Assembly (NCBI GenBank): GCA_036651955.1
Contig: JAVVWU010000002.1
Span: forward strand, 6,459 to 70,458
Source: Kiritimatiellia bacterium
Lineage (GTDB): Bacteria > Verrucomicrobiota > Kiritimatiellia > RFP12 > DVOR01
DNA: 64,000 nucleotides
Direction: 5' to 3'
Shown here: positions 2-57,627 of the stretch, piece by piece
How the letters are laid out: the number at the start of each line of letters is the position of its first letter
Position numbering within the stretch: the first letter of the stretch is position 1
Program-made: the position numbers and the translations under genes
Notes under the pieces: generated by a model
Database searches by the model: none
What the model saw: the letters and a program-made list of their open reading frames with translations, nothing else
Told to the model about the DNA's origin: nothing

Positions 2-967
2 ACGAAAGTTGTTTTGTCCGGTACGCCGATTGAAAATGGCGTGGCAGATTTATGGTCGATTATGGATTTCTTGATGCCGAAATATTTGGGAAGCTATGAG
101 GACTTTAAGATTCGCTATGAAGAGCGTGTTGCACTTGGAGGCGCCGATGCCGAAGAAGCACAAAGTCGTTTGCGCGAGAAATTGCATCCATTCTTATTAC
201 GTCGCGTGAAGAAGGAAGTCGCGAAAGATTTGCCGGATAAGATTCGCTCCATTACCTATTGTAAACTCACTTCTGATCAGCGTCGTGTATATGATGAATT
301 GCGCTCGGCGATGCTCGAAAAAATGCGCGGGTTGGTGAAAGCAAAAGGATTTGAGAAGTCGAAATTTGAAATGCTCGCATTACTGATGCGCTTACGTCAG
401 GTCTGTTGTGATTTAAGATTGTTAAAAACGCGTGTGGCGCGTCCCAATGAAGAAAGTTCCGCTAAACTGGATGCGCTTATGGAGCTTCTGGCGGAGGCGC
501 ATGCCGAACATCATCGGTTGCTCATTTTCTCGCAGTTTACAACGATGCTTCATCTGATTGCGGAACGATTGGAAGCGGAAGGGTTGACCTACTGTTATCT
601 TGATGGCGCAACCAAGGATCGGCTCGGGCAATGTTCTTTATTTAATCAAACGCCCTCTATCCCCGTGTTCTTGATTTCGTTAAAGGCAGGTGGTACAGGA
701 TTAAACTTGACCGGCGCAGATATGGTGGTGCATTTTGATCCTTGGTGGAATCCTTCCGCTGAAGAACAGGCAACAGATCGTGCACATCGTATCGGGCAGA
801 AGAAAACAGTCCATGCCATTAAATTGATTGCGGAAGACACCGTCGAGGAAAAGGTTTTGGAAATGCAACAGCGGAAACAGGCGTTAATCGAAGCTACAGT
901 AAATGCTTCGGATGCTTCTATCGCTCAAACGTTGACGTGGACGGAAATAGAAGGACTTCTTTCATGA
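2..967 (+). CDS. SNF2-family helicase, C-terminal helicase_C part. The gene starts upstream of the window.
   Basis: Frame is open from base 2. Motifs LSGTPIENG and the DPWWNP/QATDRAHRIGQ helicase-C block are present. Confidence 0.85.
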   Translation, partial: TKVVLSGTPIENGVADLWSIMDFLMPKYLGSYEDFKIRYEERVALGGADAEEAQSRLREKLHPFLLRRVKKEVAKDLPDKIRSITYCKLTSDQRRVYDELRSAMLEKMRGLVKAKGFEKSKFEMLALLMRLRQVCCDLRLLKTRVARPNEESSAKLDALMELLAEAHAEHHRLLIFSQFTTMLHLIAERLEAEGLTYCYLDGATKDRLGQCSLFNQTPSIPVFLISLKAGGTGLNLTGADMVVHFDPWWNPSAEEQATDRAHRIGQKKTVHAIKLIAEDTVEEKVLEMQQRKQALIEATVNASDASIAQTLTWTEIEGLLS

Positions 968-11659: not shown

Positions 11660-12805
11660 TTGAAAGTAGGGATACGAGTGAAAAAATTTGAAACGCCGAT
11701 ACTTGTTACGCGTCCATGGCTTCCTCCATTGGAGGAGTTCTCACAGGGACTAGCTGAAATCTGGAAGAATCAATGGCTGACAAATAATGGGCCGGTATTG
11801 GAACGTTTCCAAGCGGCACTCGCGCAACAGTTGGGATTGAGTACGAGGAATTTGTCGTTATTTGCAAATGGGACTTTAGCACTTGAGTTGATGTTTCAAA
11901 CGTTAGGGCTTGCCGGAGCAGAAGTTGTTACGACACCTTTTACATTTGTTGCAACCAGTCATGCGTTACGCCGGATCGGTGCAATTCCTGTATTTGCAGA
12001 TGTCGATCCGGAAACGCTATGCCTTTCACCTGAAGCGGCTGAACGAATGATTACGTCACGTACCAAGGCAATTGTTCCTGTACACGTCTACGGACATCCT
12101 TGCGATATCGATGGTTTTGCGCGATTGGGAGAAAAGTACGGGCTGAAAATCGTTTATGATGCGGCTCACTCATTTGGTGTTACGCTTGATGGCGCTTCAA
12201 TTGCGACTTATGGCGATGCGTCTATGTTTAGTTTCCATTCCACAAAACTCTTTCATAGTATTGAAGGCGGGTTGCTAACTTTTCGAGATGCAACAATTCA
12301 AGGTGGATTAGAGTGTTTGCGCAATTTCGCGATTACTTCTGAAACGACGTGTGATGCGATTGGCACGAATGCCAAAATGAACGAATTTGCTGCACTTATG
12401 GGCTGTTGTGGGCTTCGTCAATTGCCCGATCTGATTGCTCATCGCAAGGCGATTTAGGAGATTTACGCTCAAGCATTTGAAGGAACGCCAGTGAAATTGT
12501 TGGCGCGTCCAACGCATATGGCGCGGCATACGGTTGGACACAACTATGCTTACTGCCCTGTACTTCTTCCTGATTTTGAAATGCGAGAGCGCGTTTATGC
12601 GCGATTGAAAGCGTTTAATGTCTTTACACGTCGCTACTTTTACCCTCTGCTTTCGGCATTTGCTCCCTATCAAGATACGCGTGGAAATACGCCCATTGCC
12701 AAAAAAGCAGCTGATTGTGTCTTAACGCTTCCAACCTATCATGGGCTTGCCCTTGAAGATGTTCGTGTCATTGCTCAAAACGTTGTAGAGCTTGTTCAAT
12801 GTTGA
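11660..12805 (+). pseudogene. DegT/DnrJ/EryC1 (ArnB/PglE-like) sugar aminotransferase interrupted by an in-frame TAG at 12455-12457
   Basis: The two ORFs 11660-12457 and 12491-12805 are in the same frame. Conceptual read-through gives ...HRKAI*EIYAQAF..HNYAYCPVLL, a contiguous DegT sequence. Confidence 0.7.
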
Positions 12806-13620
12806 AACGTCTTATTATTGTTGGTGCTAGCGGTATGGGGCGTGAAGTCGCGTCTTATGCAAAAGAGGCTTTGCCGACACTTTCAATCGCAGGATTCTTG
12901 GATGATCGATCTGATTTATTGAACTCCTTTGATGGATTACCGCCCATCCTTGGATCTGTCGAAGCGTGTCATCCGCAAAAGAACGATTACTATCTTGTGG
13001 CTGTAGGTGATGCAGAAGCGCGTGCGCATTATGTTGATTGTCTTATGGTTCGTGGGGCGCATTTTGCAACGCTTATTCATCCGACTGCGTTTGTCGCGTC
13101 ATCAGCAACGCTGGGAGAAGGATGTATTATTTGCCCACAAAGTGCGGTTTCTACAAACGTTCTAATGGGGCGGCATACAATCCTCAATTTAGGTGCATCG
13201 GTAAGTCATGATTGTGAAGTGGCAGATTTTTGTACGCTCTCTCCGGGCGCTCGACTTACAGGCGCCTGTCATTTAGGACAAGGCTGTTTTCTTGGGGTGA
13301 ACGCGTCGCTGATTCCGAAGATTCATTTGTCCGCGTACACGAGTGTGGGTGCAGGGGCTGTTGTAATCCACGCCGTTCCAGAATGTCATACAACGCTTGC
13401 AGGCGTTCCGGCGCACGAGATTTCTCGTGGGGGGGGGTGGAATTCGTGGCAAAATCTCCATCAAAAAGAATGTAATTGCATAAAGTTTACGTCTTCTGTC
13501 AGATTACAAAGAGATTCTAAACAACACATTTATTTTGATACAAAGCGTACTTTCTCTAAGAGGGAAAGTACGCCGTCATTTTTACGATTATACAGTTCAT
13601 CAATTATGAAGGTAAGTTAA
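12799..13620 (+). CDS. NeuD/PglD-family sugar N-acetyltransferase (hexapeptide repeat). The last ~60 aa are likely an artefact of the poly-G tract at 13431-13439; the -1 frame ends at 13481.
   Basis: MLKRLIIVGASGMGRE N-terminus with left-handed beta-helix repeats. The ORF runs through an intrinsic terminator. Confidence 0.7.
   Translation: MLKRLIIVGASGMGREVASYAKEALPTLSIAGFLDDRSDLLNSFDGLPPILGSVEACHPQKNDYYLVAVGDAEARAHYVDCLMVRGAHFATLIHPTAFVASSATLGEGCIICPQSAVSTNVLMGRHTILNLGASVSHDCEVADFCTLSPGARLTGACHLGQGCFLGVNASLIPKIHLSAYTSVGAGAVVIHAVPECHTTLAGVPAHEISRGGGWNSWQNLHQKECNCIKFTSSVRLQRDSKQHIYFDTKRTFSKRESTPSFLRLYSSSIMKVS
13545..13584 (+). terminator. Rho-independent terminator (10-bp stem gcgtactttc/gaaagtacgc, then a T-run)
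   Basis: Seen directly. It lies inside the annotated 3' extension of ORF 12799-13620. Confidence 0.6.
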
Positions 13621-13621
13621 A

Positions 13622-14254
13622 ATGCGGAAATCGGTTTATATTATCGGTGCGCGTGGATTTGGTCGTGAGTGTGCGAATAATCTTCAAATGGATCAGCGGT
13701 TCAGAGAAAATTATGAACTGAAAGGATTCTTAGATGACAAAGCAGATGCACTCAATGGATTTGATAATTATCCTCCGATAGTTTCCTCGGTAGAGGACTT
13801 TATCCCACGGGAAAACGATGTCTTTGTCTGCGGACTTGGCAAAAATGAATATCGTAAGAAGTACATTGAAATAATGTTAAGTAAAAAGGCATATTTCCAA
13901 ACGTTCATTCATCCGACTGCAATTATTCATCCAACAGCAGTTCTTGGAGTTGGTGTTCTTGTTGGGGCAATGACAACTGTAAGTGCAGATGTAAAGGTCG
14001 GAGATTTTACACTTATCCACCCATACAACTGTTTAGGTCATGATACTGTTTTAGAACGGTTTTGCGTGAGTGAATGCTTTAGCTTCTTTGGCGGATTCTC
14101 ATTTGTGGGTGAAGGTGCAACGATTCATACGCGTGCAACAATTCTTCCACATATAAAGGTAGGTCGTGGAGCCGTCGTTGGGGCAGGAAGTGTTGTTCTT
14201 CGCTCTGTATCTGAAGGTACAACCGTTTTTGGTAATCCAGCGATTAGATTTTAA
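13622..14254 (+). CDS. NeuD/PglD-family sugar N-acetyltransferase, paralog B, in a low-GC block
   Basis: MRKSVYIIGARGFGRE N-terminus with hexapeptide repeats. Visibly AT-richer than its neighbours. Confidence 0.8.
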   Translation: MRKSVYIIGARGFGRECANNLQMDQRFRENYELKGFLDDKADALNGFDNYPPIVSSVEDFIPRENDVFVCGLGKNEYRKKYIEIMLSKKAYFQTFIHPTAIIHPTAVLGVGVLVGAMTTVSADVKVGDFTLIHPYNCLGHDTVLERFCVSECFSFFGGFSFVGEGATIHTRATILPHIKVGRGAVVGAGSVVLRSVSEGTTVFGNPAIRF

Positions 14255-14273: not shown

Positions 14274-15257
14274 TCACGATTGTGCAGGCATTCTGTTGTG
14301 CCAGATTTTGGGGTGGGCTGGGAGGTTGGTAGGGGCGTAGCCGGGGAGTTGTTCGTGCATGGTTGGAACGGATGGGTGAAGCAGATCTGTCGTTGCAATG
14401 GTACGTGCCGCGTGTGGCAAAAGCTTCCATGGTCCGGTGAGGGAATCGTGTAGAACATATGAGATTTTTTGGCTCATCGGCTTACTTTCACTGGGTGCAT
14501 GATCTACGAATAAAAGCCCATGTTCGCGTGCGCGATCGCACATCCATGCAAGTGTAGTTTCGGGAAGTCCACGCCCACTATAGCCGCCACCAATGTCTGT
14601 ATGGGAACCGGCAAACCAAACTTCGGTTACGCGTGAGTCTGAAATAAAACGGGTAGGAGAGAATGCGTTGCGGCATTCGTCGATGGCGAGTGCGTGGTAG
14701 GCGGCATTGACGCAAGCCGGTAAAGTTTGAATGCCAAAATCTTCGGTGAAGGTCGTTTGTACCGTGTCCCATACGCCGAGCATCTCAATGGGGACGTTCT
14801 TGTACCCATGTTGAGTAGAGAGGCTTTTTGCCAGCGCTACATCGTGACTTCTAAAGGCTTTTATCGCAAGTTGTTCACTCTCTTTCATCGGCGGAATACC
14901 ACAGAAGTCAATGAGACTTGCTAACCATCGTGCCGCAAAAGCACCTCGGCTGAATCCGAAAATATAGAGACGCGGTGTTAATCCTTTATCAAAAGCATGC
15001 GCGCAATCGCGTTGTGCTGTACGATAGGCTTCAATGACACGGCTTTCTAAGTTTACACCGGCAACACTTCCGGGAATGAATTCATCGGGACGTGTGCCAA
15101 TGCCGGCTTCATAATGTGTGATTTGAGCTGTTACGTCTAGCACGGATACCCACCGTTGCAATCGGGCAACATTTCCCCACTGTTCTTTTATTTTCGCTTG
15201 ATCAATATCCATGTCGGTGCCATCAATGGTAAGAACGATATTAAAGAATTTAGGCAT
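14274..15257 (-). CDS. DUF2235 alpha/beta hydrolase (T6SS Tle1-like phospholipase domain)
   Basis: N-terminal IDGTDMD, a GFSRGA nucleophile elbow and WFAGSHTDIGGGY. AAGGAG RBS. Confidence 0.75.
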   Translation of the reverse strand: MPKFFNIVLTIDGTDMDIDQAKIKEQWGNVARLQRWVSVLDVTAQITHYEAGIGTRPDEFIPGSVAGVNLESRVIEAYRTAQRDCAHAFDKGLTPRLYIFGFSRGAFAARWLASLIDFCGIPPMKESEQLAIKAFRSHDVALAKSLSTQHGYKNVPIEMLGVWDTVQTTFTEDFGIQTLPACVNAAYHALAIDECRNAFSPTRFISDSRVTEVWFAGSHTDIGGGYSGRGLPETTLAWMCDRAREHGLLFVDHAPSESKPMSQKISYVLHDSLTGPWKLLPHAARTIATTDLLHPSVPTMHEQLPGYAPTNLPAHPKIWHNRMPAQS

Positions 15258-15629: not shown

Positions 15630-16096
15630 ATCGCCTCCTTACTTACGTAGGGAGTTTAGCATAAAAGCTTTGTGAGATATTCTGACGTGTCGTGAAAAGA
15701 GTGGATTGCAGTTGTGGCTTGATGCCATTACGTCGTTTGGCTTACTTTTGAATTTCTCTTTTCTAACGATTTGTAACGGCTTTTTCTTCACATTGATTGA
15801 GTGGCTGTGCTAAGATGAACCGAACGAATGAAAGCTTTGAATAATGATTTACGGAATCGCGCACGAAATATTGATGATGCCCGTTAAACCTTGTCTTTTT
15901 AAGGACGAGTTTGAGACGGTGTGCGTTCTTTTTGCTAAAGCTTCCAAAAGTAACTTCATCCTAAAAAAATACCGTAATACCACAGTGGACTCCCTGTGGA
16001 GACTAAAGGGGGCTGCGCTTTTTTCAATGCGTATTCTCAACGGATTTGAGCGGGTTTGTCTCGGCAACGAGGAAAACAAGAAAAGGGGGCATTAAG

Positions 16097-17038
16097 ATGC
16101 TTTCAATTTATCAATGGGTCAATGGAAGTTTGCGTGAAGTTGTTACTCCCGATGGCCCTTGTTGGATCAATCTTGCAGACCCTTCCACAGAAGAAATTCT
16201 CCGCGTTCAGACGCTTACAGGTGTTTCGCGAGAGTTCATCTCCGATCCACTCGACCGAGATGAACGTCCTCGTTTGGATGTGGATGATGACGGAACAGTT
16301 CTTATTGTTGTGCATGTGCCGTATCATGAACCGAATGAGAATCTTCATCCCTTTAATACGCTTCCGTTGGGCGTGGTACATACGTCGAATGCGGTGATTA
16401 CGGTGTGCAATCGCCCGACGCCGATCGCGGCTTCCTTTCTGGATCAAATTCGGCGTGTCTGTCCACCTGAACAGAAGTTCCGTTTTACATTTCATCTTCT
16501 TTGGCATGCTGCCATTCTTTATTTGCGCTATTTGCGTGATATTCGTCAACGTGCTGATATGGTTGAACAAGAACTCCATGAATCGATCTCTAATGAAGGT
16601 CTCATGCGGTTACTGAATATTGAAAAGTCTCTCGTTTACTTCACGACCTCGCTTAAAGCGGATGATATTCTTCTTGGACGTATCCGTACCACGCGCCAAC
16701 TTAACATTGATGAAGATGACATTGACGTGTTGGAGGACGTGCGGATTGAATATCAACAGGCACTTGAAATGGCGAGCATTCACAGCAATATTTTGACTGG
16801 AACGTTGGATGCTTTTGCCTCTATTATTTCCAACAATCTGAATAATGTCATGAAGTTCTTGACCTCGATGACGATTGTGCTGATGGTTCCGTCGCTGATT
16901 GCCTCCATTTACGGGATGAATACTAAATTGCCCTTTGCAAGTGAAGTTAGCACGACGGGGTTCTTTACTATTATGGGACTTTCCGCCCTTCTTGTTCTCC
17001 TGACGATTCTATTCTTTGCTAAACGTAAATTCTTCTAA
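16097..17038 (+). CDS. corA: CorA-family Mg2+/Co2+ transporter
   Basis: YGMN motif ahead of two C-terminal TM helices. AAAAGGGGG RBS. Confidence 0.85.
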   Translation: MLSIYQWVNGSLREVVTPDGPCWINLADPSTEEILRVQTLTGVSREFISDPLDRDERPRLDVDDDGTVLIVVHVPYHEPNENLHPFNTLPLGVVHTSNAVITVCNRPTPIAASFLDQIRRVCPPEQKFRFTFHLLWHAAILYLRYLRDIRQRADMVEQELHESISNEGLMRLLNIEKSLVYFTTSLKADDILLGRIRTTRQLNIDEDDIDVLEDVRIEYQQALEMASIHSNILTGTLDAFASIISNNLNNVMKFLTSMTIVLMVPSLIASIYGMNTKLPFASEVSTTGFFTIMGLSALLVLLTILFFAKRKFF

Positions 17039-18330
17039 TGGATACGGTTTCTTCTGCCGAAGTTTATGCGCATCTCCGCGAGAGTAGCGTTACTCTTTGC
17101 AGGGAAAGCGTTGGAATGCCCACGGAAGCGCAATTACAGGCGGTGTGGTTTGATTCGGCATTGCGTCCGGTAGATCTTGCGCTTCCCGATGGTACGCCAC
17201 TCACGGTGCTTGAACCGGGGGTGTGGAATCGCGTGGATGGTCCTGATTTTCACGATGCGCTTCTTTCCATTGGTGGCATTCTTCGTCGAGGTGATGTGGA
17301 GTTGCACCTTCGCCCTTCCGATTGGGACGCGCATGGTCATGCGACTGATCCTGCATATGCGAATCTAATTCTTCATGTCGTCTGGGAGGCAACGCCTCTC
17401 GCCAAAGGGCTTCCGGTGAAGCTTCCGCAACTCGTCTTGCGCCCGTTTGTGGAGCAGAACGGCCCTTATTCTTTCGATGCAATCGACTTGTCTCATTATC
17501 CCTATCAAACGTTGAGCGACAATACGCGACCGTGTTTTCTCAATCTTACAGAAAATCCCGGTGCAACCGATCGCCTGCTTGTTTCGGCTGGGTACTTTAG
17601 GTTGCAAACTAAAAGCAAAGTTTTTGCAGATGCTGTGCGCGCGGGCGATGCGTTTCAAGCCTTTTATGAAGCCCTTCTCACAACGATGGGGTATCGCCGT
17701 AATACGCTCCCTTTTCATCAACTCGCACACGAAATTTCGTTTGCAAGCATTAAGCCCTTTCCCTCTCTCCAACGTTTTGCCATCCTTGCAGGAGTCGCTG
17801 GACTTTTGAGCCCGGAAGGACAGAGCCCACTGTGGAATCTTTGGTGGCAAAGTGGTATTCAGCCTTCTTTAACAGCTTATGCGTGGGATTTCCGAACACT
17901 TCGTCCGCAAAATCATCCATTTCGTCGTTTGGCAGGTGCGGTTGGAATAGTTCATTCCATTGCCAAGCTTTTGGAGCTTCCGCTTGATAAACTTCCGGAT
18001 GCACTTGTTGACGCCTCTACACTTCTTTGTGAGCCCTTGAAATTACGTTCGGGTGCGCCCATTGGTAAAACACGTGCCAACGCGATTGTCACGAACCTTT
18101 TTATCCCGTACCGGTTAGCACTTGGATCGCTTGAACTTGATCAACTCCACGCGTTGCCAAGTGAAGATGTTTCCGCTCCCATGCGTGAGGTGTGGCATCG
18201 CTTAACAGGTGAGTCACCGAATTCATTGCCGAGGGAAGGGCTTCGTCAACAGGGATTGCTTCAAATCCACGCCGACTTTTGTCACAATCCGCGTCTCGTC
18301 TGTGCTACGTGTCCCCTTGCTAAGAAATGA
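17038..18330 (+). CDS. DUF2851-family protein
   Basis: HLRPSDWDAHGH-type motif. TAATG overlap with corA. Confidence 0.6.
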   Translation: MDTVSSAEVYAHLRESSVTLCRESVGMPTEAQLQAVWFDSALRPVDLALPDGTPLTVLEPGVWNRVDGPDFHDALLSIGGILRRGDVELHLRPSDWDAHGHATDPAYANLILHVVWEATPLAKGLPVKLPQLVLRPFVEQNGPYSFDAIDLSHYPYQTLSDNTRPCFLNLTENPGATDRLLVSAGYFRLQTKSKVFADAVRAGDAFQAFYEALLTTMGYRRNTLPFHQLAHEISFASIKPFPSLQRFAILAGVAGLLSPEGQSPLWNLWWQSGIQPSLTAYAWDFRTLRPQNHPFRRLAGAVGIVHSIAKLLELPLDKLPDALVDASTLLCEPLKLRSGAPIGKTRANAIVTNLFIPYRLALGSLELDQLHALPSEDVSAPMREVWHRLTGESPNSLPREGLRQQGLLQIHADFCHNPRLVCATCPLAKK

Positions 18331-20479: not shown

Positions 20480-21211
20480 ATGTGGAGACTAATCAATCTG
20501 AGTTTAATTGGAATTATTGGATTCTGTGGATGTGTTAGAACAACTGCAGTTGAGTCTGATAAGAGTTTGAGAACGAGCGCACAACAAGCGTTTTCAATGG
20601 GGGAGTATAATCGCGCAAAAGCATTGATTATGCAAGCGGATCGCTATCAGGTTCCATGGACGGAACTTTCACGCCGCACACTTGATTTGCGTATTGCACA
20701 AGCAGAAAATGTACAAAATGGAGAACTTCAGTTTCTTCAAGATGCTTGGCTCAAACAATATGATCGTTGGACAGCAGAGGAACGTGCGGACGCTCAACTC
20801 ACGATGATTGAAACGTTACGTCCAGAATATGCGCTTGATCAATTGCGTGACATTGATACTTATGGGTGGTCAGCCGAATTACGCGCACGTTATAATTTAC
20901 TCTTTGCACGTCTCCTTGCCGGTCGTCCCGAACTTTATGATACAACCATTGCAAAGTGGACGATGGGCATTAAGGCACTTTATAAGACCGGTAAAAAAGA
21001 CGTTGCGGCGCGTGAAGCTGAACGATGTGCAACACTGATGAAAAATGCAAATGCTGCATTGATTGCCGCGAAGATTCATAATGAGTTGCATCATATGAAG
21101 TCGAAAGAAGATGCGATCCTTCTCGGGCTTTCATTCTCATCAGAGAGCGATATCTTGCATGAGGTCAACCTTATCCGTTCTGCATCTCTTGGAACTAAAA
21201 GCCAACTCTGA
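20480..21211 (+). CDS. Hypothetical secreted protein or lipoprotein
   Basis: N-terminal hydrophobic segment with cysteines. No known domain. Confidence 0.45.
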   Translation: MWRLINLSLIGIIGFCGCVRTTAVESDKSLRTSAQQAFSMGEYNRAKALIMQADRYQVPWTELSRRTLDLRIAQAENVQNGELQFLQDAWLKQYDRWTAEERADAQLTMIETLRPEYALDQLRDIDTYGWSAELRARYNLLFARLLAGRPELYDTTIAKWTMGIKALYKTGKKDVAAREAERCATLMKNANAALIAAKIHNELHHMKSKEDAILLGLSFSSESDILHEVNLIRSASLGTKSQL

Positions 21212-21273
21212 TGAAGAAAATTCATGAGAGATGCAGTAAAAGTGCCACTTTATTATAGAAAAGAGAATTAACT

Positions 21274-22551
21274 ATGGCGGATGGAGATACACGACGTTGG
21301 TCGCTTCGCAATCCCAGCGCAGAGATTAGTAACAACAATATTCCTACGGCGATGCTTGTACAGTGGGCGTCGCAAGGAATTGTTAAGCCGGGCTATACGC
21401 TCTCCACCGATGGAATCTCATGGGTTCCTGCCGAAACACTTCCCGAGCTTAATATGACGTGGTATATCCTTGCTCCGGAACGTCCGCCCTACGGACCTAT
21501 CACTCAAGCCGCTGCAGAAAAATTTATCGCGGAAGCTCTTTTCCCTCGGAACTCTGTTCTCTCACAAAATCCGGGCGATCAGCCCGTTTCGATTGAGCTT
21601 CCTTTACATCTTGTTATCCCGGAAGAATCTCATCAACAAGAAGTGGAAGAAACGCGCAAACGTCTTGTATTACTTGAGAAAGAACTTCGGATTAAAGATC
21701 GTCGCATTAACGAATTGCGGCAAGAAGCTGAAATGCACCAATCTGAATTGAACGTTGATAATATCCCCGACGCAAAGACGCTCGCCGCTGAACTTGAACA
21801 AACGCGATTAGAATATGCCCACCTTAAGGCTTCTGCTCAAGAAGCCGAAGAAGCTTCTGCCCAGCATGAGCGTGAATTGCGTCAGCGGATCCATACGCTT
21901 GATACTGCCCTCGAAAAAGCTCAAAGCACACTTCCGCCGGAAGCACCGCCAGATGAAACGCTTTTTGCAATTCTTTCCAAAGAAGCGGAACTCCTTCGTC
22001 AAGGACAAGAAGAAGAACAACGATTGCTAGACCAAATCCGTGAACTTGCACGGATGCGTCTGGTTCAGCTTTCAGAGCGTCTCCGTGACATTTGCAAACT
22101 TACCGGAGACACGCCTCTACAGATGCGCGAAAATATTCGGCGAGAAGGTTATATTCATCCGATTACCGTTGTCCAACGTTCCAACCCTACCGGTAATGCC
22201 GAATTAGAAAAAAGCCTTTCCGCCGCCCTCGCGCGTGAAAGTGCTTTGCAAAAACAGCTTATTTCGCTTGAAGCACGTGAAACGGAATTGCGTACTAAAG
22301 TCGGTCAAGCCGAACGTCAAACGCTTGATTCCCTCACCCTTGATGAAAAGTTAAGAGAAACTGCGAAAGCTTTGGAACGCGAACGGCATTCTCGCGAAGA
22401 AGAACATCGTGAAAATGCGCATATTCAAGAGCAATTGCTTCGTCGTATTGAGGAACTTGAACGTAATGCAATTCCGGCGACCGCGCCAATTCTTGAGTCT
22501 CCGTCAGTCGAACGCCCCGCGTCGAACTTCGGATGGCTTCGGAAGAAATGA
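21274..22551 (+). CDS. DUF4339 (GYF-like) repeat protein with a long coiled-coil region
   Basis: W...GP...W repeats at the N-terminus. Heptad-rich E/R/L C-terminal half. Confidence 0.5.
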   Translation: MADGDTRRWSLRNPSAEISNNNIPTAMLVQWASQGIVKPGYTLSTDGISWVPAETLPELNMTWYILAPERPPYGPITQAAAEKFIAEALFPRNSVLSQNPGDQPVSIELPLHLVIPEESHQQEVEETRKRLVLLEKELRIKDRRINELRQEAEMHQSELNVDNIPDAKTLAAELEQTRLEYAHLKASAQEAEEASAQHERELRQRIHTLDTALEKAQSTLPPEAPPDETLFAILSKEAELLRQGQEEEQRLLDQIRELARMRLVQLSERLRDICKLTGDTPLQMRENIRREGYIHPITVVQRSNPTGNAELEKSLSAALARESALQKQLISLEARETELRTKVGQAERQTLDSLTLDEKLRETAKALERERHSREEEHRENAHIQEQLLRRIEELERNAIPATAPILESPSVERPASNFGWLRKK

Positions 22552-28730: not shown

Positions 28731-30815
28731 ATGAAACAGACTTTTCTTTTGTTGTTTACAATCTTTGCTGGCTTGCTGGCGGGAATAGCCTATCGTCTTT
28801 ATGGGCAGTGGACGGGAGAGGCTTCGGTGTGGGGCGTGATTGTGCCGAGTATGGTTGCTGCATTATCGTTGGCATGGTTGACGCGTCGGTGGGTAGGGGG
28901 AAGAGGTTGTGCTGCGCTGGCGGTTCTTTGTGCGGTGATGGCCTTTTCAATGTTTGGTCATACCGTGCAAATGGTTCACGACTGGACATTCCTTTCGCTT
29001 AAAATCAATCTGACGTATCGGGAGTGGTGGCTGTTCGTATTAAATCATGCCATGATGTGGTTCGTGCCATTAGCGTTCACGCTCGTTTATATTTGGCGGT
29101 GCAATGCGATTCCTCGTGGTCGTATGACGGCGTTTGTGGGTGCATGTGTCGGGCTTATTTTGGCGCGATTGATGGTGGGAAGAATGTCCACAACATTGTT
29201 GATAGACATTTGCCTTGTTGGACTTTTACTTTCGGCTCCTGCATGGTTGGCAGCGGAGTTGCGGGGGAAATGGACGCGAGGATCGGCATTTGTACTTGCT
29301 GTAGTTCTTTTAGTCGGATGGTATTTTACTTCGCGTTCTGCACCGCAAGAATTATTACGGGATGTGAATCCATTTGCAACGATTGCCACGCGCGATTTGC
29401 TTTATACGGGAATTGGTACGGAGGGAGTGACGTTGCGGGAAGGTCGTTTACTTCGACGTGTTGGATTTGATACCGCCTCCAGTTTTGCCTCGCAACTGAT
29501 TCCAACGCTGTTGAAGCCTCAGACGAATGCGCGTATTGCGGTGCGGCTTCTTGCCGGTGGTGAAGCACTTCCGACCTATGATGTGAATGAACTTAAAGGT
29601 CAATATGATGCTTTGTACGTGGAGCTTCCGCCGGCATGGGTGACTTCCGAAAGAGATTATTTTGGAACGGCGGCACTGGATGCGGCATTGACGCATTTGT
29701 TTCAGGATGGTGTACTCGTTTATGCGATGGATGCAAGATGCCTTGATGCTCGAATGATGATGGAGCGTGTGGCGATTCTTCGTCAACGATTTGGAAATGT
29801 TCAGCTTTGGATGACAGGACGTGACCAATGGCAATTAGTTGCTTCGCGTTCGCCTATTACGACGGACTTTGTGGCGGTTTCAACGCTTTTGGATCGTCCC
29901 GAATTAGCGCATGCTCTTTTTGCCGCAGAGATTGATACTGCCATAAGTTTGTTCTCCTGCTTTATCGCAGAGGCGTCGGCGTTGGATAAAGCTTTGGCGG
30001 AACCAATCTCGCCGGAAATTCGTCCACGTGAGTCTACTCTCGCACGTAAGCTCCTGTTTGATGGTATTGGGAGCCAACGTTTATCAAAGGAGTTTGAACC
30101 TTTTCGTGATTATGAAATGTCGTGGGTGAAAGTTCCGACGGAATCGGGCGAGGATCTTCGTGCGGTATTAAAGGTCTTACAAACGGCGCGTCATTTGGCA
30201 ATTGAAGGGAAGCTCAAAGAAGCCTCTGAAATGAATCCTTGTGACCCTTATTTACTCGGGCTTGCAGATCGTGAAATCTCAAATGCACGTGCATGGGAGA
30301 AACTTGCGGAGCATGAAAAAGCAATCGCGTCCTATCTCTCTGCATTTGCGATTGCAAAGCCCAGCCTCATTGATGTGTTAGCGGCAGCGAGTATTGTCGA
30401 AGAAACAAGAACTCCTGAACGTGCTGAGCTGCTTTATAAACTCGCACATGATTTGGCGCCTGATAATATGGCTTATCTCTTCCAATATATGTCCTTCTTG
30501 AAAAATCGTAAACAGTATGTGAAAGCTCAGCAGATTGCAGACCGCGTTGTCTGTTTGGCGGGATCGTTCGATCTTGCCACACGTGCGATGCTTTTTTCTG
30601 CACAGATGGTCGTGCAGCAAGGGCGTGTCAAAGAGGGATTGGAAACGGCACGCCAATTGGCGGAGGCGGCTCAAACATCAGTCGATAAAGATTATTTTAT
30701 CCTCGCTTATGCTCAACTGCTCATTGATACGGGGTCGCCTGTTTTGGGGATCAATGTTAAACGACACTATGCTGCTTATCATGAACTGTTACCGCAGAAA
30801 GAGGAGAGAAAATGA
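28731..30815 (+). CDS. Polytopic membrane protein with a spermidine-synthase-like fold and a C-terminal TPR-like region
   Basis: Many TM helices, then LYVELPP...GVLVYA, then helical repeats. Assignment is tentative. Confidence 0.45.
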   Translation: MKQTFLLLFTIFAGLLAGIAYRLYGQWTGEASVWGVIVPSMVAALSLAWLTRRWVGGRGCAALAVLCAVMAFSMFGHTVQMVHDWTFLSLKINLTYREWWLFVLNHAMMWFVPLAFTLVYIWRCNAIPRGRMTAFVGACVGLILARLMVGRMSTTLLIDICLVGLLLSAPAWLAAELRGKWTRGSAFVLAVVLLVGWYFTSRSAPQELLRDVNPFATIATRDLLYTGIGTEGVTLREGRLLRRVGFDTASSFASQLIPTLLKPQTNARIAVRLLAGGEALPTYDVNELKGQYDALYVELPPAWVTSERDYFGTAALDAALTHLFQDGVLVYAMDARCLDARMMMERVAILRQRFGNVQLWMTGRDQWQLVASRSPITTDFVAVSTLLDRPELAHALFAAEIDTAISLFSCFIAEASALDKALAEPISPEIRPRESTLARKLLFDGIGSQRLSKEFEPFRDYEMSWVKVPTESGEDLRAVLKVLQTARHLAIEGKLKEASEMNPCDPYLLGLADREISNARAWEKLAEHEKAIASYLSAFAIAKPSLIDVLAAASIVEETRTPERAELLYKLAHDLAPDNMAYLFQYMSFLKNRKQYVKAQQIADRVVCLAGSFDLATRAMLFSAQMVVQQGRVKEGLETARQLAEAAQTSVDKDYFILAYAQLLIDTGSPVLGINVKRHYAAYHELLPQKEERK

Positions 30816-31423
30816 AAAAACAGGTATTGATTCTTGGTGCGGGCGGTTTGGGGCGTGAAGTCTTTCATTGGGCACACGATTGCGGTTATGAAGTCCTTGG
30901 GCTGATAGACGACAATCAAAATGCGCTTGAAGGCTACAAAGGTTACGCCCATATTCTCGGAGGCGTTGATGATATTCCTCTTATGGCGCCTATTATTTGT
31001 GGCGTTGGTAAAAGTGCGGTGCGTCGAGCCTGTGTAGAACGGTTGCTCGTGCGCGGTGCAGAATTTGTTTCTTGTGTTCATCCGCTAGCGAAAGTTTTGG
31101 ACGGGAGTACGTTTGGGCGTGGAGCAGTGATTGCGCCCTTTGCCTATGTTGGAGCAGATGTGAACGTTGGCGATTTTCTTTTTATGCAGACAGGTGCAGT
31201 TTTAGGGCACGATGTTGCGGCAGGTGATTTTTTGCGAATGGATACCACCGCATTCGTTGGCGGTTTTTCGCAAATTGGAAATGATGTGACGCTTTATACC
31301 GGTGCAAAGGTAATGCCGGGGAAAACAGTGGGTGACCATTGTACGCTTGGGGCAGGATCGGTTCTGCTCAATAATTTATATGCAGGAGCAACGGCATTTG
31401 GTGTTCCTGCTCAAAAGATTTAA
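30812..31423 (+). CDS. NeuD/PglD-family sugar N-acetyltransferase, paralog C
   Basis: MKKQVLILGAGGLGRE with hexapeptide repeats. Confidence 0.8.
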   Translation: MKKQVLILGAGGLGREVFHWAHDCGYEVLGLIDDNQNALEGYKGYAHILGGVDDIPLMAPIICGVGKSAVRRACVERLLVRGAEFVSCVHPLAKVLDGSTFGRGAVIAPFAYVGADVNVGDFLFMQTGAVLGHDVAAGDFLRMDTTAFVGGFSQIGNDVTLYTGAKVMPGKTVGDHCTLGAGSVLLNNLYAGATAFGVPAQKI

Positions 31424-50604: not shown

Positions 50605-50654
50605 GAATAAGCTGTTATCTAAGAGAATTGCGCATTTGCGTTTGATCGCAAACG

Positions 50655-51428
50655 TTACGCGCGATCTTGTGGGAATCTAAATTCAGAGGACAGGGAGTCG
50701 AGCGTTTTAAGCGCACGGTCTTTTGAGCGAAGATAACAAGACTCTAATGTCTTTAGAAGATCTTCTGTGCCACGCCAATAGGGAAGTGTTCCTAATCGTT
50801 TGGAAAGAAGTCCGTTGATGGTTGCAGGGGCAAGATGTAAGATTGTGTTTTCATCAAGAATTTCAGGCTTGATATGGGGCATGGGATTGGACAATTCAAT
50901 TCCACGGAAGCGTAAGAAAAGGAGCGGATCGGCACTTATCGCATCAATAAAAAGATAGAGCGTTGCTGCAAGATGCTTACACGGACGCGACCAATCTTTA
51001 CAGGTACATTCAAAATGCATATCAGATTTTTTCCGCGGGAAAAGTGAAAGCCCTTGCCGTTGAAGCTCGGTTTCAATGCTGATAGGAAGTCCATGTGTAT
51101 AAAGTTGAGCGGTGATGGTGGGATGTGTTTTTAGGAAGTTAGACATTAACGCAGCGTTTAGTTCTGGCATTGTAATGACAATTTGATAGGGTGCTTCGGA
51201 GGCTCCTTGAACTTCTGCTGTTAATTTCCCCGGAATGAGTGTAAGCGTTTTAATTTGTCCAAGTTGGGCATAGTTTCTTCCGCGTCCTAATCGCGCACCC
51301 ATTCGCAGGCTTTCAAGATAGGTAATCCATTGTTGCCGCCACCAAACATTTTTGCGTGAAGATTGAAGCCTTAGACCGCCATGAACAGTCTTTGCAATAC
51401 GAGGCGCGTAAATATGTTTTTGAGACAT
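50655..51428 (-). CDS. SWIM zinc-finger protein
   Basis: CTCKDWSRPCKH CxC...CxH motif. Confidence 0.7.
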   Translation of the reverse strand: MSQKHIYAPRIAKTVHGGLRLQSSRKNVWWRQQWITYLESLRMGARLGRGRNYAQLGQIKTLTLIPGKLTAEVQGASEAPYQIVITMPELNAALMSNFLKTHPTITAQLYTHGLPISIETELQRQGLSLFPRKKSDMHFECTCKDWSRPCKHLAATLYLFIDAISADPLLFLRFRGIELSNPMPHIKPEILDENTILHLAPATINGLLSKRLGTLPYWRGTEDLLKTLESCYLRSKDRALKTLDSLSSEFRFPQDRA

Positions 51429-52024
51429 TATTCGTTCTCAATGGTTCCGGAACAGAGAAAATCAAAAGAGATGACATCGCCACCACGACCACTTTCATCG
51501 TCTTTTTCGTGAACGCGAAGTTTGAATGGGCGCATGGTACCATTCGTACGTATCGTGATAGAAAACGTAGAGGCGGTCGTCTTTTTTTCTGTTGAAAGAA
51601 CGGAAGTACTATTTTCGATGTTGTCGGTGTAATTGAGAAATTCAAATCCGACGAGATCGTAATATTTGGTAATGGCGACTTCTTCTACACTGCCACCTTG
51701 TACGGCAGTACGCATGGAAGAGGGGGCAGAAGCTGAAGCAGGCACCGTTGAGCTTGACTTCTCTTCAATATTTGATGTTGTCACATGCGAGTCATCGAGT
51801 GGCGAAGAAAGCGCAATAGATCCAGGTGAAAATGTTATCGTTATAGGTTGCTGTGTTTGAAGTGCCATATTTCTTGCATAGCGCATGAGACGAAGTGAGT
51901 CTTTTGCCGCCATGGAAATTTGTACACTTGGAACCATCGAAAATGAGGGAACAATAATGGCCATCATCGTAGCGAGGATGGCCAGTACAATGAGTAATTC
52001 AATGAGCGTAAAACCGCGTCGCAT
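51428..52024 (-). CDS. Prepilin-type N-terminal cleavage/methylation domain protein (pseudopilin-like)
   Basis: MRRGFTLIELLIVLAILA class-III signal sequence. Confidence 0.7.
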   Translation of the reverse strand: MRRGFTLIELLIVLAILATMMAIIVPSFSMVPSVQISMAAKDSLRLMRYARNMALQTQQPITITFSPGSIALSSPLDDSHVTTSNIEEKSSSTVPASASAPSSMRTAVQGGSVEEVAITKYYDLVGFEFLNYTDNIENSTSVLSTEKKTTASTFSITIRTNGTMRPFKLRVHEKDDESGRGGDVISFDFLCSGTIENE

Positions 52025-52515
52025 TAAAGTACGTTCGCAATAAGAACACCAGCCAAAACAAGGATAACAATAACGGCAAATACGATAATGGCATTGAGCA
52101 TCTTCTTGCTCTCAGACTTCTTGGCAAATCCTTCGGTTGTACGCGTGGCTGTTGCGGGACGCATGACAATGGTTGTCCGAGGAATACTGTCAATCGACTC
52201 TGTAACTCCGGCATCGGCTTCGGGGACATCATCGCCACGAATGGAAATGGAAATATCTCCGAGCGTAATAACATCATTGCGATGAATTGTCGCTATTGTG
52301 ATTTTTTGATCGTTGACGCGTGTACCATTGGTGGAGTCCAAGTCTTTTACACGCCAACCGCCTTCACTCCGTTCAATCAGACAATGTTCGCCTGAGACAG
52401 ACGCGTTGTTAACAACAAAATCATTGGCGGCATGACGCCCGAGACGGATTTGTTCTGCCGTCCACTCATAGGTTTTGCCAATTTCATCGCCATTCAGAAT
52501 TGTGATATTCGGCAT
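52024..52515 (-). CDS. FHA-domain protein with a C-terminal TM anchor
   Basis: FHA core (GR..N, SGEH, TNGT). Hydrophobic tail. AAGGAGG RBS. Confidence 0.75.
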   Translation of the reverse strand: MPNITILNGDEIGKTYEWTAEQIRLGRHAANDFVVNNASVSGEHCLIERSEGGWRVKDLDSTNGTRVNDQKITIATIHRNDVITLGDISISIRGDDVPEADAGVTESIDSIPRTTIVMRPATATRTTEGFAKKSESKKMLNAIIVFAVIVILVLAGVLIANVL

Positions 52516-52520
52516 AAAGC

Positions 52521-52580
52521 CCTCCTTAGGAAATCAATGGAATTATAGCATAGAAAATGCAGATAAACGCAGATGTGCAT
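52521..52580 (-). promoter_or_regulatory. Sigma-70-like promoter (-10 TATAAT at 52542-52547 on the minus strand) and RBS for the FHA-pseudopilin-SWIM operon
   Basis: Reverse complement reads ctatgcTATAATtcc...AAGGAGGgctttATG. Confidence 0.5.
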
Positions 52581-55740: not shown

Positions 55741-57627
55741 TTGGAGACTTTTATGAAGTACATGATGACAATGTTTTTCATCGTTATTGCTGGAGCAATA
55801 GCACGCGCCGAATATCTTTTGCCGGAAACGATTGCAATGGCTCCAAATGGGGAGCGGATTTTGATTGGAGAGCGTGGCGCAGGGCGCGTCTCTGAACGTG
55901 ATTTTACGGGTAAAGAAGTCGGGGCGATTTCGGCAACGAAAAAGGTTGGCGGGTTCCTTGGTTTTTTCGGTGAAAAAGTGACCTTGCCTGTGACAGGGGT
56001 GACCTATGCACCTGACGGAACCATTTTTTACACGGCTGAAGATGGGAACGAAGGACGCCTTTTCCGCGCAGATGGTTCGTCAGTTATTTCGGGGAATCGC
56101 CCGATGACACCCACCGTTTCGGCAGATGGGCAATTTGTATATGTCTGTAATCGATTTGATGCGAACGTTAAGAAGTTCAATGCAAAGACATTGAAAGAAG
56201 TCGCTTGTGCGAAAACGATTCGTGAGGCAACGGGCTGTGCTTTAGGTAAAGACGATAAACTTCTTTTCGTTATCAATTTATTGCCTGATGCGGCAACAGA
56301 GCCCGTGGGGTGGGTGGCGGCACGTGTAACGGTGATTGATACCGCAACGTTTAAGGTGCTGGATCATGTGCAGTTGCCAGATGGCTCAACGGGTGTTCGT
56401 GGCATTACCGCTTCACCTGACGGTAAGTACATTTATTGCACGCATACACAGGCGCGCTATCAATTGCCAACGACGCAACTTGAACGTGGCTGGATGAATA
56501 CGGCGGCACTGTCTGTTTTTGATGGTGAAACGGGACGTTATGTGAATACGGTGCTACTGGATGATGTGGATTTTGGCGCAGCGAATCCATGGGGTGTCAC
56601 GGTGACTCCGAATGGCGTGTCGATTGTTGTGACGCATGCCGGAACGCGTGAGATCAGTGTAATTGACCGTGACGCTTTGCATCGTCGCCTTGAGGCGGCT
56701 GCCGCAGGACAAAAAGTGACAGAGGTTACCTCTTCTGCAAATGAAGTGCACAATGATCTTTCATTCTTGTCGGACATTCGGCGCCGCTTTGATTTTCCTG
56801 CCGATGGTCCACGCGGCGTTGTCGCAACGAATGATAAAGCATATGCCGTTTGCTATTTTGCCGATGCGCTTGTGGAAGTCCCGTTTAATGAGCGTGTCGT
56901 TCGCCCCGTGGTACGTCCGCTGAATGGTACAGCGCTGATTGATCTTTCCAAGGATCGTGTCTTACGTGGTGAGATGTTGTTTAACGACGGATCGATGTGT
57001 TTTCAAAAGTGGCAGAGTTGTGCCACATGTCACCCCGATGGGGTGGTGGATGGCTTTAACTGGGATTTGCTGAATGATGGGATTGGTAATCCAAAGCAAA
57101 CAAAGAGCCTTTATCTTTCCGGATTTACACCTCCAACAATGATTACAGGTATTCGTAAAGATATGGCGCATTGTAATCGCGCCGGTATTCGGCATATTCA
57201 ATTTTGCGCACGTCCCGAGGAGGATGGTATTTGTTTGGATGCTTATGTAATGTCGATGAAACAGCAAGTGTCACCTTTTGCACGGGATCAAAAGGCGATT
57301 GCACGTGGTAAGGTGATTTTTGAAAAGGCTGATTGTAACCGTTGCCATAAGCCCGATTACTATTTCACGATGGCAAAGAATCCGGCGGATGGATCGCAGG
57401 TGCCGTTGTTTAATCTTGGTTTAGGAACGCGTGACGAAGTCGGACAAAAGTTTGATGTGCCGACGTTGTGCGAGGTGTGGCGGACGGCGCCGTACTTGTA
57501 TGATGGACGTGCGCGAACAATGATGGATGTTTTGACAACGTGGAATATTGAGGATATGCATGGAGTTACTTCCGATTTGTCGGAGCAGGAACTCAAAGAT
57601 CTTGAAATTTACATTCTTTCCCTTTGA
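55741..57627 (+). CDS. Secreted beta-propeller protein fused to a di-heme cytochrome c (cytochrome-c-peroxidase/MauG-like) domain
   Basis: Signal peptide, YVTN-like repeats, CATCH and CNRCH heme-binding sites. Confidence 0.65.
   Translation: METFMKYMMTMFFIVIAGAIARAEYLLPETIAMAPNGERILIGERGAGRVSERDFTGKEVGAISATKKVGGFLGFFGEKVTLPVTGVTYAPDGTIFYTAEDGNEGRLFRADGSSVISGNRPMTPTVSADGQFVYVCNRFDANVKKFNAKTLKEVACAKTIREATGCALGKDDKLLFVINLLPDAATEPVGWVAARVTVIDTATFKVLDHVQLPDGSTGVRGITASPDGKYIYCTHTQARYQLPTTQLERGWMNTAALSVFDGETGRYVNTVLLDDVDFGAANPWGVTVTPNGVSIVVTHAGTREISVIDRDALHRRLEAAAAGQKVTEVTSSANEVHNDLSFLSDIRRRFDFPADGPRGVVATNDKAYAVCYFADALVEVPFNERVVRPVVRPLNGTALIDLSKDRVLRGEMLFNDGSMCFQKWQSCATCHPDGVVDGFNWDLLNDGIGNPKQTKSLYLSGFTPPTMITGIRKDMAHCNRAGIRHIQFCARPEEDGICLDAYVMSMKQQVSPFARDQKAIARGKVIFEKADCNRCHKPDYYFTMAKNPADGSQVPLFNLGLGTRDEVGQKFDVPTLCEVWRTAPYLYDGRARTMMDVLTTWNIEDMHGVTSDLSEQELKDLEIYILSL

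Follow-up and report, generated by a model that had tools for sequence, protein, structure and literature searches.

Closest described systems

Bacterial SWIM zinc-finger proteins of the COG4279 type are known from gene pairs with SNF2 helicases that contain a DUF3670 domain. A literature search on DUF3670, SWIM-SNF2, Rv2102 and FHA with pseudopilin returned no functional study of a bacterial SNF2-SWIM pair. Here we describe a SWIM gene that is separated from such a helicase and forms the third gene of a tightly packed trio, the first two genes of which encode a tail-anchored FHA protein and a pseudopilin. The trio lies on the minus strand of a stretch of 64,000 nucleotides (nt) from a Kiritimatiellia bacterium (GenBank assembly GCA_036651955.1, contig JAVVWU010000002.1, positions 6,459 to 70,458), which was analysed as a whole and is referred to as the window. 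The combination of FHA, pseudopilin and SWIM brings known domain families into a new association, which is limited to one lineage.

The SWIM protein of the trio is a full-length member of the COG4279-type family. It is 30–38% identical to the SNF2-linked members and has in common with them an N-terminal domain with the motif LGRGRxYAxxGQ, the CxC..CxH zinc finger and a C-terminal helical region. It differs from them in its substitutions around the zinc-finger motif, in a new C-terminal tail and in its context: none of the trio loci has an SNF2 gene within 7 kb, and the new partners are the membrane FHA protein and the pseudopilin.

FHA domains with a single helix as inner-membrane anchor are found in the mycobacterial FhaB/FipA and FhaA, in YscD/PrgH of type III and TagH/Fha1 of type VI secretion systems, and in the gliding protein GltG. 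The FHA protein of the trio is anchored likewise and, as in the FHA domains of kinase pathways, its phosphothreonine-binding residues are conserved. The best matches among the family models are FhaB_Rv0019c, GltG and TagH, all below cutoff, together with Yop-YscD_cpl (E 1e-16). Unlike in YscD, PrgH, GltG and TagH, however, the FHA domain is N-terminal, the anchor is located at the extreme C-terminus and a periplasmic domain is absent. With only three residues past the anchor the protein is also distinct from the YscD/PrgH ring proteins of type III secretion systems, and the PrgH match (E 0.014) is below cutoff. Compared with FhaB the domain order is reversed, the FhaB model having its FHA domain at the C-terminal positions 68–152 of 158. 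In addition, the trio lacks an adjacent kinase or phosphatase.

The pseudopilin is related to GspH, EpsH, FimU and FimT, minor (pseudo)pilins from type II secretion systems and type IV pili, but it is not encoded beside gspG, gspI, gspJ or gspK and stays below the cutoff of the GspH model TIGR01708 (51.2 bits versus 80). Further differences are a variable, disordered insert rich in acidic and Ser/Thr residues and a single invariant cysteine, located in a DFLC motif. FimT binds DNA, whereas the pilin of the trio is acidic.

Precedents for a type IV filament machine under the control of FHA or zinc-finger proteins are ArnA/ArnB, the regulators of the Sulfolobus archaellum (PMC4307647), and Kil, an FHA-rich Tad-like apparatus (PMC8460266). 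ArnA combines an FHA domain with a zinc finger, and its FHA domain (5a8i) is a detectable relative of that of the trio. In the trio, however, the FHA domain and the zinc finger reside on separate proteins, the finger is of the SWIM type, the FHA protein is membrane-anchored, a vWA partner is missing and the organism is bacterial. The resemblance to ArnA/ArnB and Kil is therefore one of analogy only.

Conservation of the trio

As stated in the first-pass annotation, the three genes are joined by TAATG stop/start sequences; adjacent open reading frames (ORFs) overlap by one base at 52024 and 51428. Exact and homologous look-ups revealed four distinct genomic contexts that hold the same three genes. 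A scan with the SWIM alignment, with each GTDB species represented by one genome, yielded 70 loci, 27 of which are of the trio type, defined by a SWIM protein at least 45% identical to that of the window. Upstream DNA is available for 25 of these, and in all 25 the SWIM gene is immediately preceded by the FHA and pilin genes, with order and strand unchanged. Conversely, when metagenomes were scanned with the FHA protein as the anchor, ten close relatives were obtained. On nine of these contigs the pilin gene follows the FHA gene, the tenth contig stopping right past the FHA gene, and six also carry the SWIM gene, which is present wherever the contig is long enough. The arrangement recurs at every examinable orthologous locus and is far beyond chance. 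The first-pass annotation had argued from the tight coupling that the genes form a functional unit, and the comparison with relatives bears this out: the genes stay linked while their flanks differ.

The identities to the window proteins are 54–75% for the FHA protein, 39–57% for the pilin and 45–58% for the SWIM protein. Clustering of the flanking ORFs of 26 non-redundant loci disclosed no recurrent neighbours other than the three trio genes (26 of 26) and gyrB (10 of 26, including the basal branch L020), and hence no larger conserved cluster around the trio. Where present, gyrB precedes the trio in the same orientation, at a distance of about 72 nt. It was rejected as a member of the unit, given its occurrence at only ten loci and the conserved promoter in the spacer between gyrB and the FHA gene. 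At locus L030 the genes for a CPBP protease, a DEDDh exonuclease and a sialidase, which in the window are the upstream neighbours, are found downstream and inverted, with the trio intact.

The pilin family, the membrane-anchored FHA family and the trio-type SWIM proteins were recovered from gut Kiritimatiellia material only. The trio is limited to one clade of animal-gut Kiritimatiellia, with metagenome-assembled genomes labelled Candidatus Spyradenecus, Kiritimatiellae or Lentisphaeraceae, and its inheritance is apparently vertical. The bacterium of the window is itself of animal-gut origin, the closest protein (99% identity) being from an NCBI metagenome-assembled genome with the label Kiritimatiellia.

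These data bear on the possibility that three unrelated small proteins merely share one strong promoter, without assembling into a complex. In five loci (L013, L014, L015, L043 and L070) the pilin-SWIM spacer measures 80–233 nt, which permits separate control of the SWIM gene, and prepilin-like genes are scattered in genomes of the Planctomycetes-Verrucomicrobia-Chlamydiae (PVC) group. On the other hand, the gene order is invariant across lineages in which gyrB is only ~70% identical and all other neighbours change, in most loci the genes overlap at their stop and start codons or are only a few bases apart (mostly −8 to +16 nt), all three families have the same restricted source, and the SWIM sequence changed upon joining the trio, as described below. 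Co-regulation alone is thus quite unlikely; were it true, the trio would be a conserved, lineage-restricted operon of unknown function.

Two further observations concern the distribution and surroundings of the trio. Contigs with Kiritimatiellia-type SWIM genes or trios (L020, L056, L065, L072, L073 and L075) occur in bins of a 'cleanbin' series that are labelled Agathobacter rectalis, Lachnospiraceae, Clostridiales, Methanomethylophilaceae, Alistipes and Faecalibacterium; the contigs are probably contaminants of these bins. In the window, 34 kb separate the trio from a CorA and DUF2851 gene pair (16046-18330, plus strand); at L003 (3575-5796) this pair lies about 1 kb upstream of the trio, in divergent orientation and with one ORF of 257 amino acids (aa) in between, which is a case of reshuffled long-range synteny.

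Operon layout and transcription signals

At 23 of 26 orthologous loci the FHA start codon is preceded, at a distance of 25–33 nt, by a promoter of the form TTGACA-N17/18-TATACT with at most one mismatch in 12 positions; the background rate of such a match is 9 in 2000 random 100-nt windows. The same promoter is also found within the 72-nt spacer between gyrB and the FHA gene. On the basis of this near-consensus promoter, including its presence behind gyrB, the trio can be regarded as an autonomous transcription unit. In the window the TATAAT and AAGGAGG elements noted in the first-pass annotation are both present (Table 1), and the former occupies a position equivalent to that of the conserved promoter. 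Its TG dinucleotide, one base 5' of TATAAT, makes it an extended −10 element. The −35 element is degenerate, and as a consequence the promoter was missed by a generic promoter scan. AAGGAG is found at the matching position in most orthologous loci. The palindrome downstream of the SWIM gene is possibly a terminator hairpin; it lacks a T-run and was not called by the terminator scan.

Table 1. Coordinates of the trio, its protein features and its putative expression signals in the window.
Feature	Position	Strand	Description
Trio ORFs	52515-50655	−	163 + 198 + 257 aa
Extended −10 element TGcTATAAT	52542..52550	−	TATAAT hexamer at 52547-52542; ends 26 nt 5' of the FHA start codon
Shine-Dalgarno sequence AAGGAGG, gene 1	52521..52527	−	5 nt (GCTTT) before ATG
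Tail-anchored FHA protein (gene 1), 163 aa	52024..52515	−	FHA domain aa 1-95, conserved linker, C-terminal transmembrane helix
PRTTI linker motif (P112-R113-T114-T115-I116)	52168..52182	−	invariant in 27 sequences
C-terminal membrane anchor, ~aa 138-160	52036..52104	−	followed by 3 residues
GspH/FimU-fold minor pseudopilin paralogue (gene 2), 198 aa	51428..52024	−	leader MRRG; mature N-terminus FTLIELL
Ser/Thr/acid-rich variable insert, aa 74-108	51701..51805	−	predicted disordered; length and sequence vary among 55 orthologues
SWIM zinc-finger protein (gene 3), 257 aa	50655..51428	−	basic; no transmembrane segment
SWIM motif C141-x-C143-x6-C150-x-H152	50973..51008	−	invariant in 45 orthologues
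Palindrome CGTTTG-CGAT-CAAACG	50639..50654		immediately 3' of the SWIM stop codon, where the SWIM and GT2 genes converge

The FHA protein and the pseudopilin

The FHA domain matches Pfam family PF00498 well above the cutoff (E 4.5e-18, 65.9 bits versus 20.7). Residues G26-R27, S41-G-E-H44 and S61-T62-N63-G64 are invariant across 27 orthologues, and the canonical phosphothreonine-binding residues (the Gly-Arg, Ser-x-x-His and Asn-Gly loops) are all present. The nearest solved structures are those of the mycobacterial phosphothreonine-binding FHA domains of Rv1747, EmbR, FhaA and GarA, which belong to kinase pathways. From these residues we infer that the domain is a phosphothreonine reader. The invariant PRTTI motif in the linker constitutes a candidate phosphorylation site of the type pT-x-x-V/M. 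The hydrophobicity of the C-terminal anchor reaches a maximum of 3.39 (Kyte-Doolittle, 19-residue window, aa 142–160), and the juxtamembrane motif GF.KKSE.K is conserved in the 27 FHA sequences.

The pseudopilin shows an N-terminal methylation signal (PF07963, 30.4 bits versus a cutoff of 21.2; TIGR02532, 31.7 versus 16.3), of which G4, F5, T6, L7 and E9 (Glu+5) are invariant in 55 sequences, followed by a hydrophobic helix (Kyte-Doolittle 2.89, aa 7–25). The match to the GspH family is barely above the cutoff (PF12019, 21.1 bits versus 21.0), and the fold is that of GspH/FimU. Structure prediction, the scope of which was monomers, assigned a predicted local distance difference test score below 50 to aa 85–105 of the insert. 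The FHA protein with its C-terminal anchor and the pilin with a class III signal and a Ser/Thr-rich middle thus correspond to their description in the first-pass annotation, the latter now refined to a GspH/FimU-fold paralogue.

The pilin family comprises ~105 clusters at 90% identity, from the same type of gut Kiritimatiellia sources, and several of its contigs are the contigs of trio-type SWIM matches. The next-best relatives, outside the trio clade, are similar over the N-terminal third only. One of these is encoded between a GspG-like gene and GspI/J/K-like genes, where it takes the place of GspH in a gspGHIJK-like cluster. The best reading of the trio pilin is accordingly that of a GspH paralogue, which is likely to be linked to a type II secretion machine with genes elsewhere. 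The periplasmic part is acidic (median isoelectric point 4.8, net charge −9), which argues against DNA binding of the FimT type, and no conserved basic C-terminal motif is present in the pilin alignment. A FimT-like DNA-binding pilin is therefore disfavoured.

The SWIM protein and its SNF2 ancestry

The SWIM match of the window protein is below the gathering cutoff of PF04434 (16.7 versus 19.6 bits), and a sequence search of the PDB with the SWIM profile gave no match. Many homologues have a precomputed PF04434 match, the fold resembles that of ZSWIM8 and Shu2, and the invariance of the zinc-finger motif and the lack of a transmembrane segment agree with the cytoplasmic CxC..CxH protein of the first-pass annotation. 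At E ≤ 1e-10 the family comprises 3,416 clusters in a library clustered at 50% identity. Only two of these are of the trio type, separated from the rest by ~135 bits (370 versus 235).

The earlier statement that SWIM proteins usually pair with SNF2 proteins holds for this family. Its distant members are encoded directly downstream of a DUF3670-SNF2 helicase in Gemmataceae, Actinobacteria, Chloroflexota, one cyanobacterium and many other Kiritimatiellia. In a neighbour-joining tree the trio-type SWIM proteins are monophyletic and sister to a mostly SNF2-linked Kiritimatiellia clade, the outgroups being SNF2-linked as well. The SWIM gene directly follows an SNF2 gene in most loci of the sister clade and in those outgroup loci that extend far enough upstream (L077 ends at a contig edge). 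No scanned genome gave both a trio-type and an SNF2-linked SWIM protein. The linkage to DUF3670-SNF2 thus appears, as judged from gene neighbourhoods and the tree, to be the ancestral arrangement.

The trio-type proteins retain 43 positions that are conserved family-wide and show 17 clade-specific substitutions. In or next to the motif these include CxCKDW for CSCPDW and FADA for LGEE, and the new C-terminal tail has the sequence RFPED. SWIM proteins of the Kiritimatiellia sister clade that are not linked to SNF2 retain the SNF2-type residues. The sequence change of the trio SWIM protein coincides with the new gene context.

The first-pass annotation further mentioned that the only SNF2 gene of the window is 50 kb away. 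An SNF2 gene is indeed present at the start of the window (14-967, plus strand, cut by the window edge) and is 35–41% identical to the SWIM-linked SNF2 proteins, but it belongs to a different lineage. None of the 120 relatives listed for it has a DUF3670 match, although most of these are from short contigs and may be partial; those from long contigs measure ~440–520 aa. In the two relatives checked SWIM is not a neighbour, and the ThiF and NusA genes that follow the window SNF2 gene are absent from SNF2-SWIM loci elsewhere. This gene was therefore rejected as the missing partner of the SWIM protein.

The ancestry of the SWIM protein raises the question whether the trio takes part in DNA transactions. 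The SWIM protein might serve an SNF2 helicase elsewhere, or act in a damage response or in DNA uptake, with the FHA protein and the pilin as a tether or gate, or with a FimT-like pilin capturing DNA. Such a role would be in line with the former SNF2 coupling and the 43 retained positions, with the basic character of the SWIM protein (median isoelectric point 9.4), with the position of gyrB directly upstream at ten loci including the basal branch, and with the strong induction of a Deinococcus SWIM gene by radiation (PMC5552922). However, an SNF2 gene is missing near the trio loci, the helicase of the window is of the wrong lineage, the trio has its own promoter even behind gyrB, the acidic pilin lacks a conserved basic C-terminal motif, and the SWIM protein departs from the SNF2-linked forms at positions which these have conserved. 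Taken together, a DNA-transaction module is unlikely.

SNF2- and SWIM-like parts also occur in defence islands, and an anti-phage or conflict system was therefore considered. The SNF2 helicases linked to SWIM match the DpdE, ZorD and DrmD models, and at L004/L005 (11540-16786) a gene for a 1331-aa polyvalent protein (LPD3, ART-PolyVal, PBECR5) and an RHS/YD-shell gene are located 3 kb downstream of the trio. This conflict or mobile-element island is without relation to the other loci. The trio occurs in a housekeeping context in the window and at most loci, in a single copy per genome, with a monophyletic SWIM protein and no recurrent mobile-element genes nearby. As none of the three proteins matches any PADLOC model, a defence system is highly improbable and was rejected.

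Several neighbours of SWIM genes deserve mention. A 628-aa CCP_MauG-like (di-haem peroxidase-like) protein is encoded 3.2 kb from the trio (55741-57627, plus strand), and in five other Kiritimatiellia genomes (L034, L046, L048, L063 and L074) a stand-alone SWIM gene comes immediately after the gene for its orthologue (52–57% identity). This adjacency suggests residual synteny of an earlier SWIM location. In two sister-clade genomes an unlinked SWIM gene is followed, after a few hundred bases, by an oppositely oriented gene for an Stp1-type PP2C Ser/Thr phosphatase (E 4.6e-48; L057, 8304-9086 and L060, 8595-9377, both minus strand), and in the Gemmataceae locus L006 the SWIM gene is followed by genes for an extracytoplasmic function sigma factor and a Pkinase-TPR protein. 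These neighbours are possible hints of a tie between SWIM and Ser/Thr signalling, or due to chance. At L007 small ORFs between the SNF2 and SWIM genes were considered as FHA or pilin genes and proved to be related to neither. At L079 (5013-7359) an overlapping SNF2_assoc ORF (PF08455) precedes the helicase gene, leaving its full length uncertain; the two may represent a split or frameshifted longer gene.

A possible phospho-dependent membrane module

The most likely of the readings considered, though short of probable, is that the trio, as an autonomous operon, encodes a three-protein module of the inner membrane, a phospho-dependent adaptor between a specialised pseudopilin and a SWIM protein put to a new use. 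In such a module the tail-anchored FHA protein would display its phosphothreonine-reading domain at the cytoplasmic face of the membrane. The GspH paralogue would be processed by a prepilin peptidase and would then either join a pseudopilus or type IV filament machine that is encoded at another site, or compete for a place in it. The basic, cytoplasmic SWIM protein, with ancestors next to a DUF3670-SNF2 helicase, would act as adaptor or output. Its recruitment to, or release from, the FHA protein at the membrane would be governed by Ser/Thr phosphorylation, either of the PRTTI linker of the FHA protein itself or of a partner. In this way the state of the pseudopilin or the secretion apparatus could be coupled to a SWIM-mediated cytoplasmic response. 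The phosphothreonine-signalled pilin or envelope module that was proposed at first fits the intact binding residues and the invariant PRTTI motif; the physical complex, its phospho-dependence and its output are what we infer.

Several observations weigh against this proposal. The window contains no kinase, PP2C, prepilin peptidase or type II secretion/type IV pilus machinery (Pfam search of ORFs of at least 150 aa), and no kinase, phosphatase, prepilin peptidase or secretion/pilus gene recurs in the flanks of the 26 loci. More specifically, an ATPase (GspE/PilB), platform protein (GspF/PilC), secretin, major pilin or GspI/J/K is neither present in the 64-kb window nor recurrent at these loci, in agreement with the earlier view that this is not a recognisable type II secretion or type IV pilus operon. 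A conserved ligand for the FHA domain is not apparent in the SWIM alignment, in which no Ser or Thr is invariant. In PVC bacteria prepilin-type proteins are commonly scattered outside secretion operons, so that the pilin could simply travel along a general export route as a passenger. Finally, one 4.1-kb metagenome scaffold (L109, 981-1790) carries the FHA gene, a diverged pilin gene and def-fmt, without a SWIM gene. Its promoter and FHA gene are normal, and the pilin ORF diverges completely after about residue 120; the scaffold is either an assembly chimera or the result of a natural disruption or rearrangement breakpoint.

A bolder form of the adaptor model, which we consider distinctly improbable, holds that the SWIM protein was captured from a chromatin-remodeller-like SNF2 system as the cytoplasmic output of a trans-envelope pathway, in which a dedicated GspH-like pilin would report the state of a secretion or pilus machine via the tail-anchored phosphothreonine reader and elicit a SWIM response directed at DNA or protein. 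If true, the trio would represent a new kind of pseudopilus-coupled signalling device and offer the first functional handle on bacterial SWIM proteins. To our knowledge, a link between FHA domains or phosphothreonine and pseudopilins of the type II secretion type has not been described, and the trio would add such a link. With its SWIM gene away from the helicase and locked to two membrane proteins, the trio is a natural experiment, which shows that SWIM can work with other partners and suggests where a protein-adaptor role may be sought. It also concerns uncultured gut Kiritimatiellia, the envelope biology of which is almost unknown.

Other features of the window

The remaining ORFs of the window of at least 150 aa include, by Pfam match, housekeeping and envelope-sugar genes. 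Among the sugar-modification genes a Tle1-like phospholipase effector domain of the type VI secretion system is encoded (14274-15257, minus strand, E 6e-45), and no other genes of that system were seen in the window. A DegT/DnrJ aminotransferase ORF (11660-12457, plus strand) covers profile positions 5–247 of 360 and is possibly truncated or frameshifted. Behind it, paralogues of a PglD-like acetyltransferase form a tandem pair (12799-14254, plus strand), with a third copy at 30812-31423 (plus strand). Three ORFs of 243, 425 and 694 aa (20480-22551 and 28731-30815, plus strand) have no Pfam match at E ≤ 1e-4. The GC skew of the plus strand is positive in nearly all 2-kb bins, including stretches with minus-strand genes (50–52 kb), which is consistent with a single replichore arm and a strong strand-composition bias.

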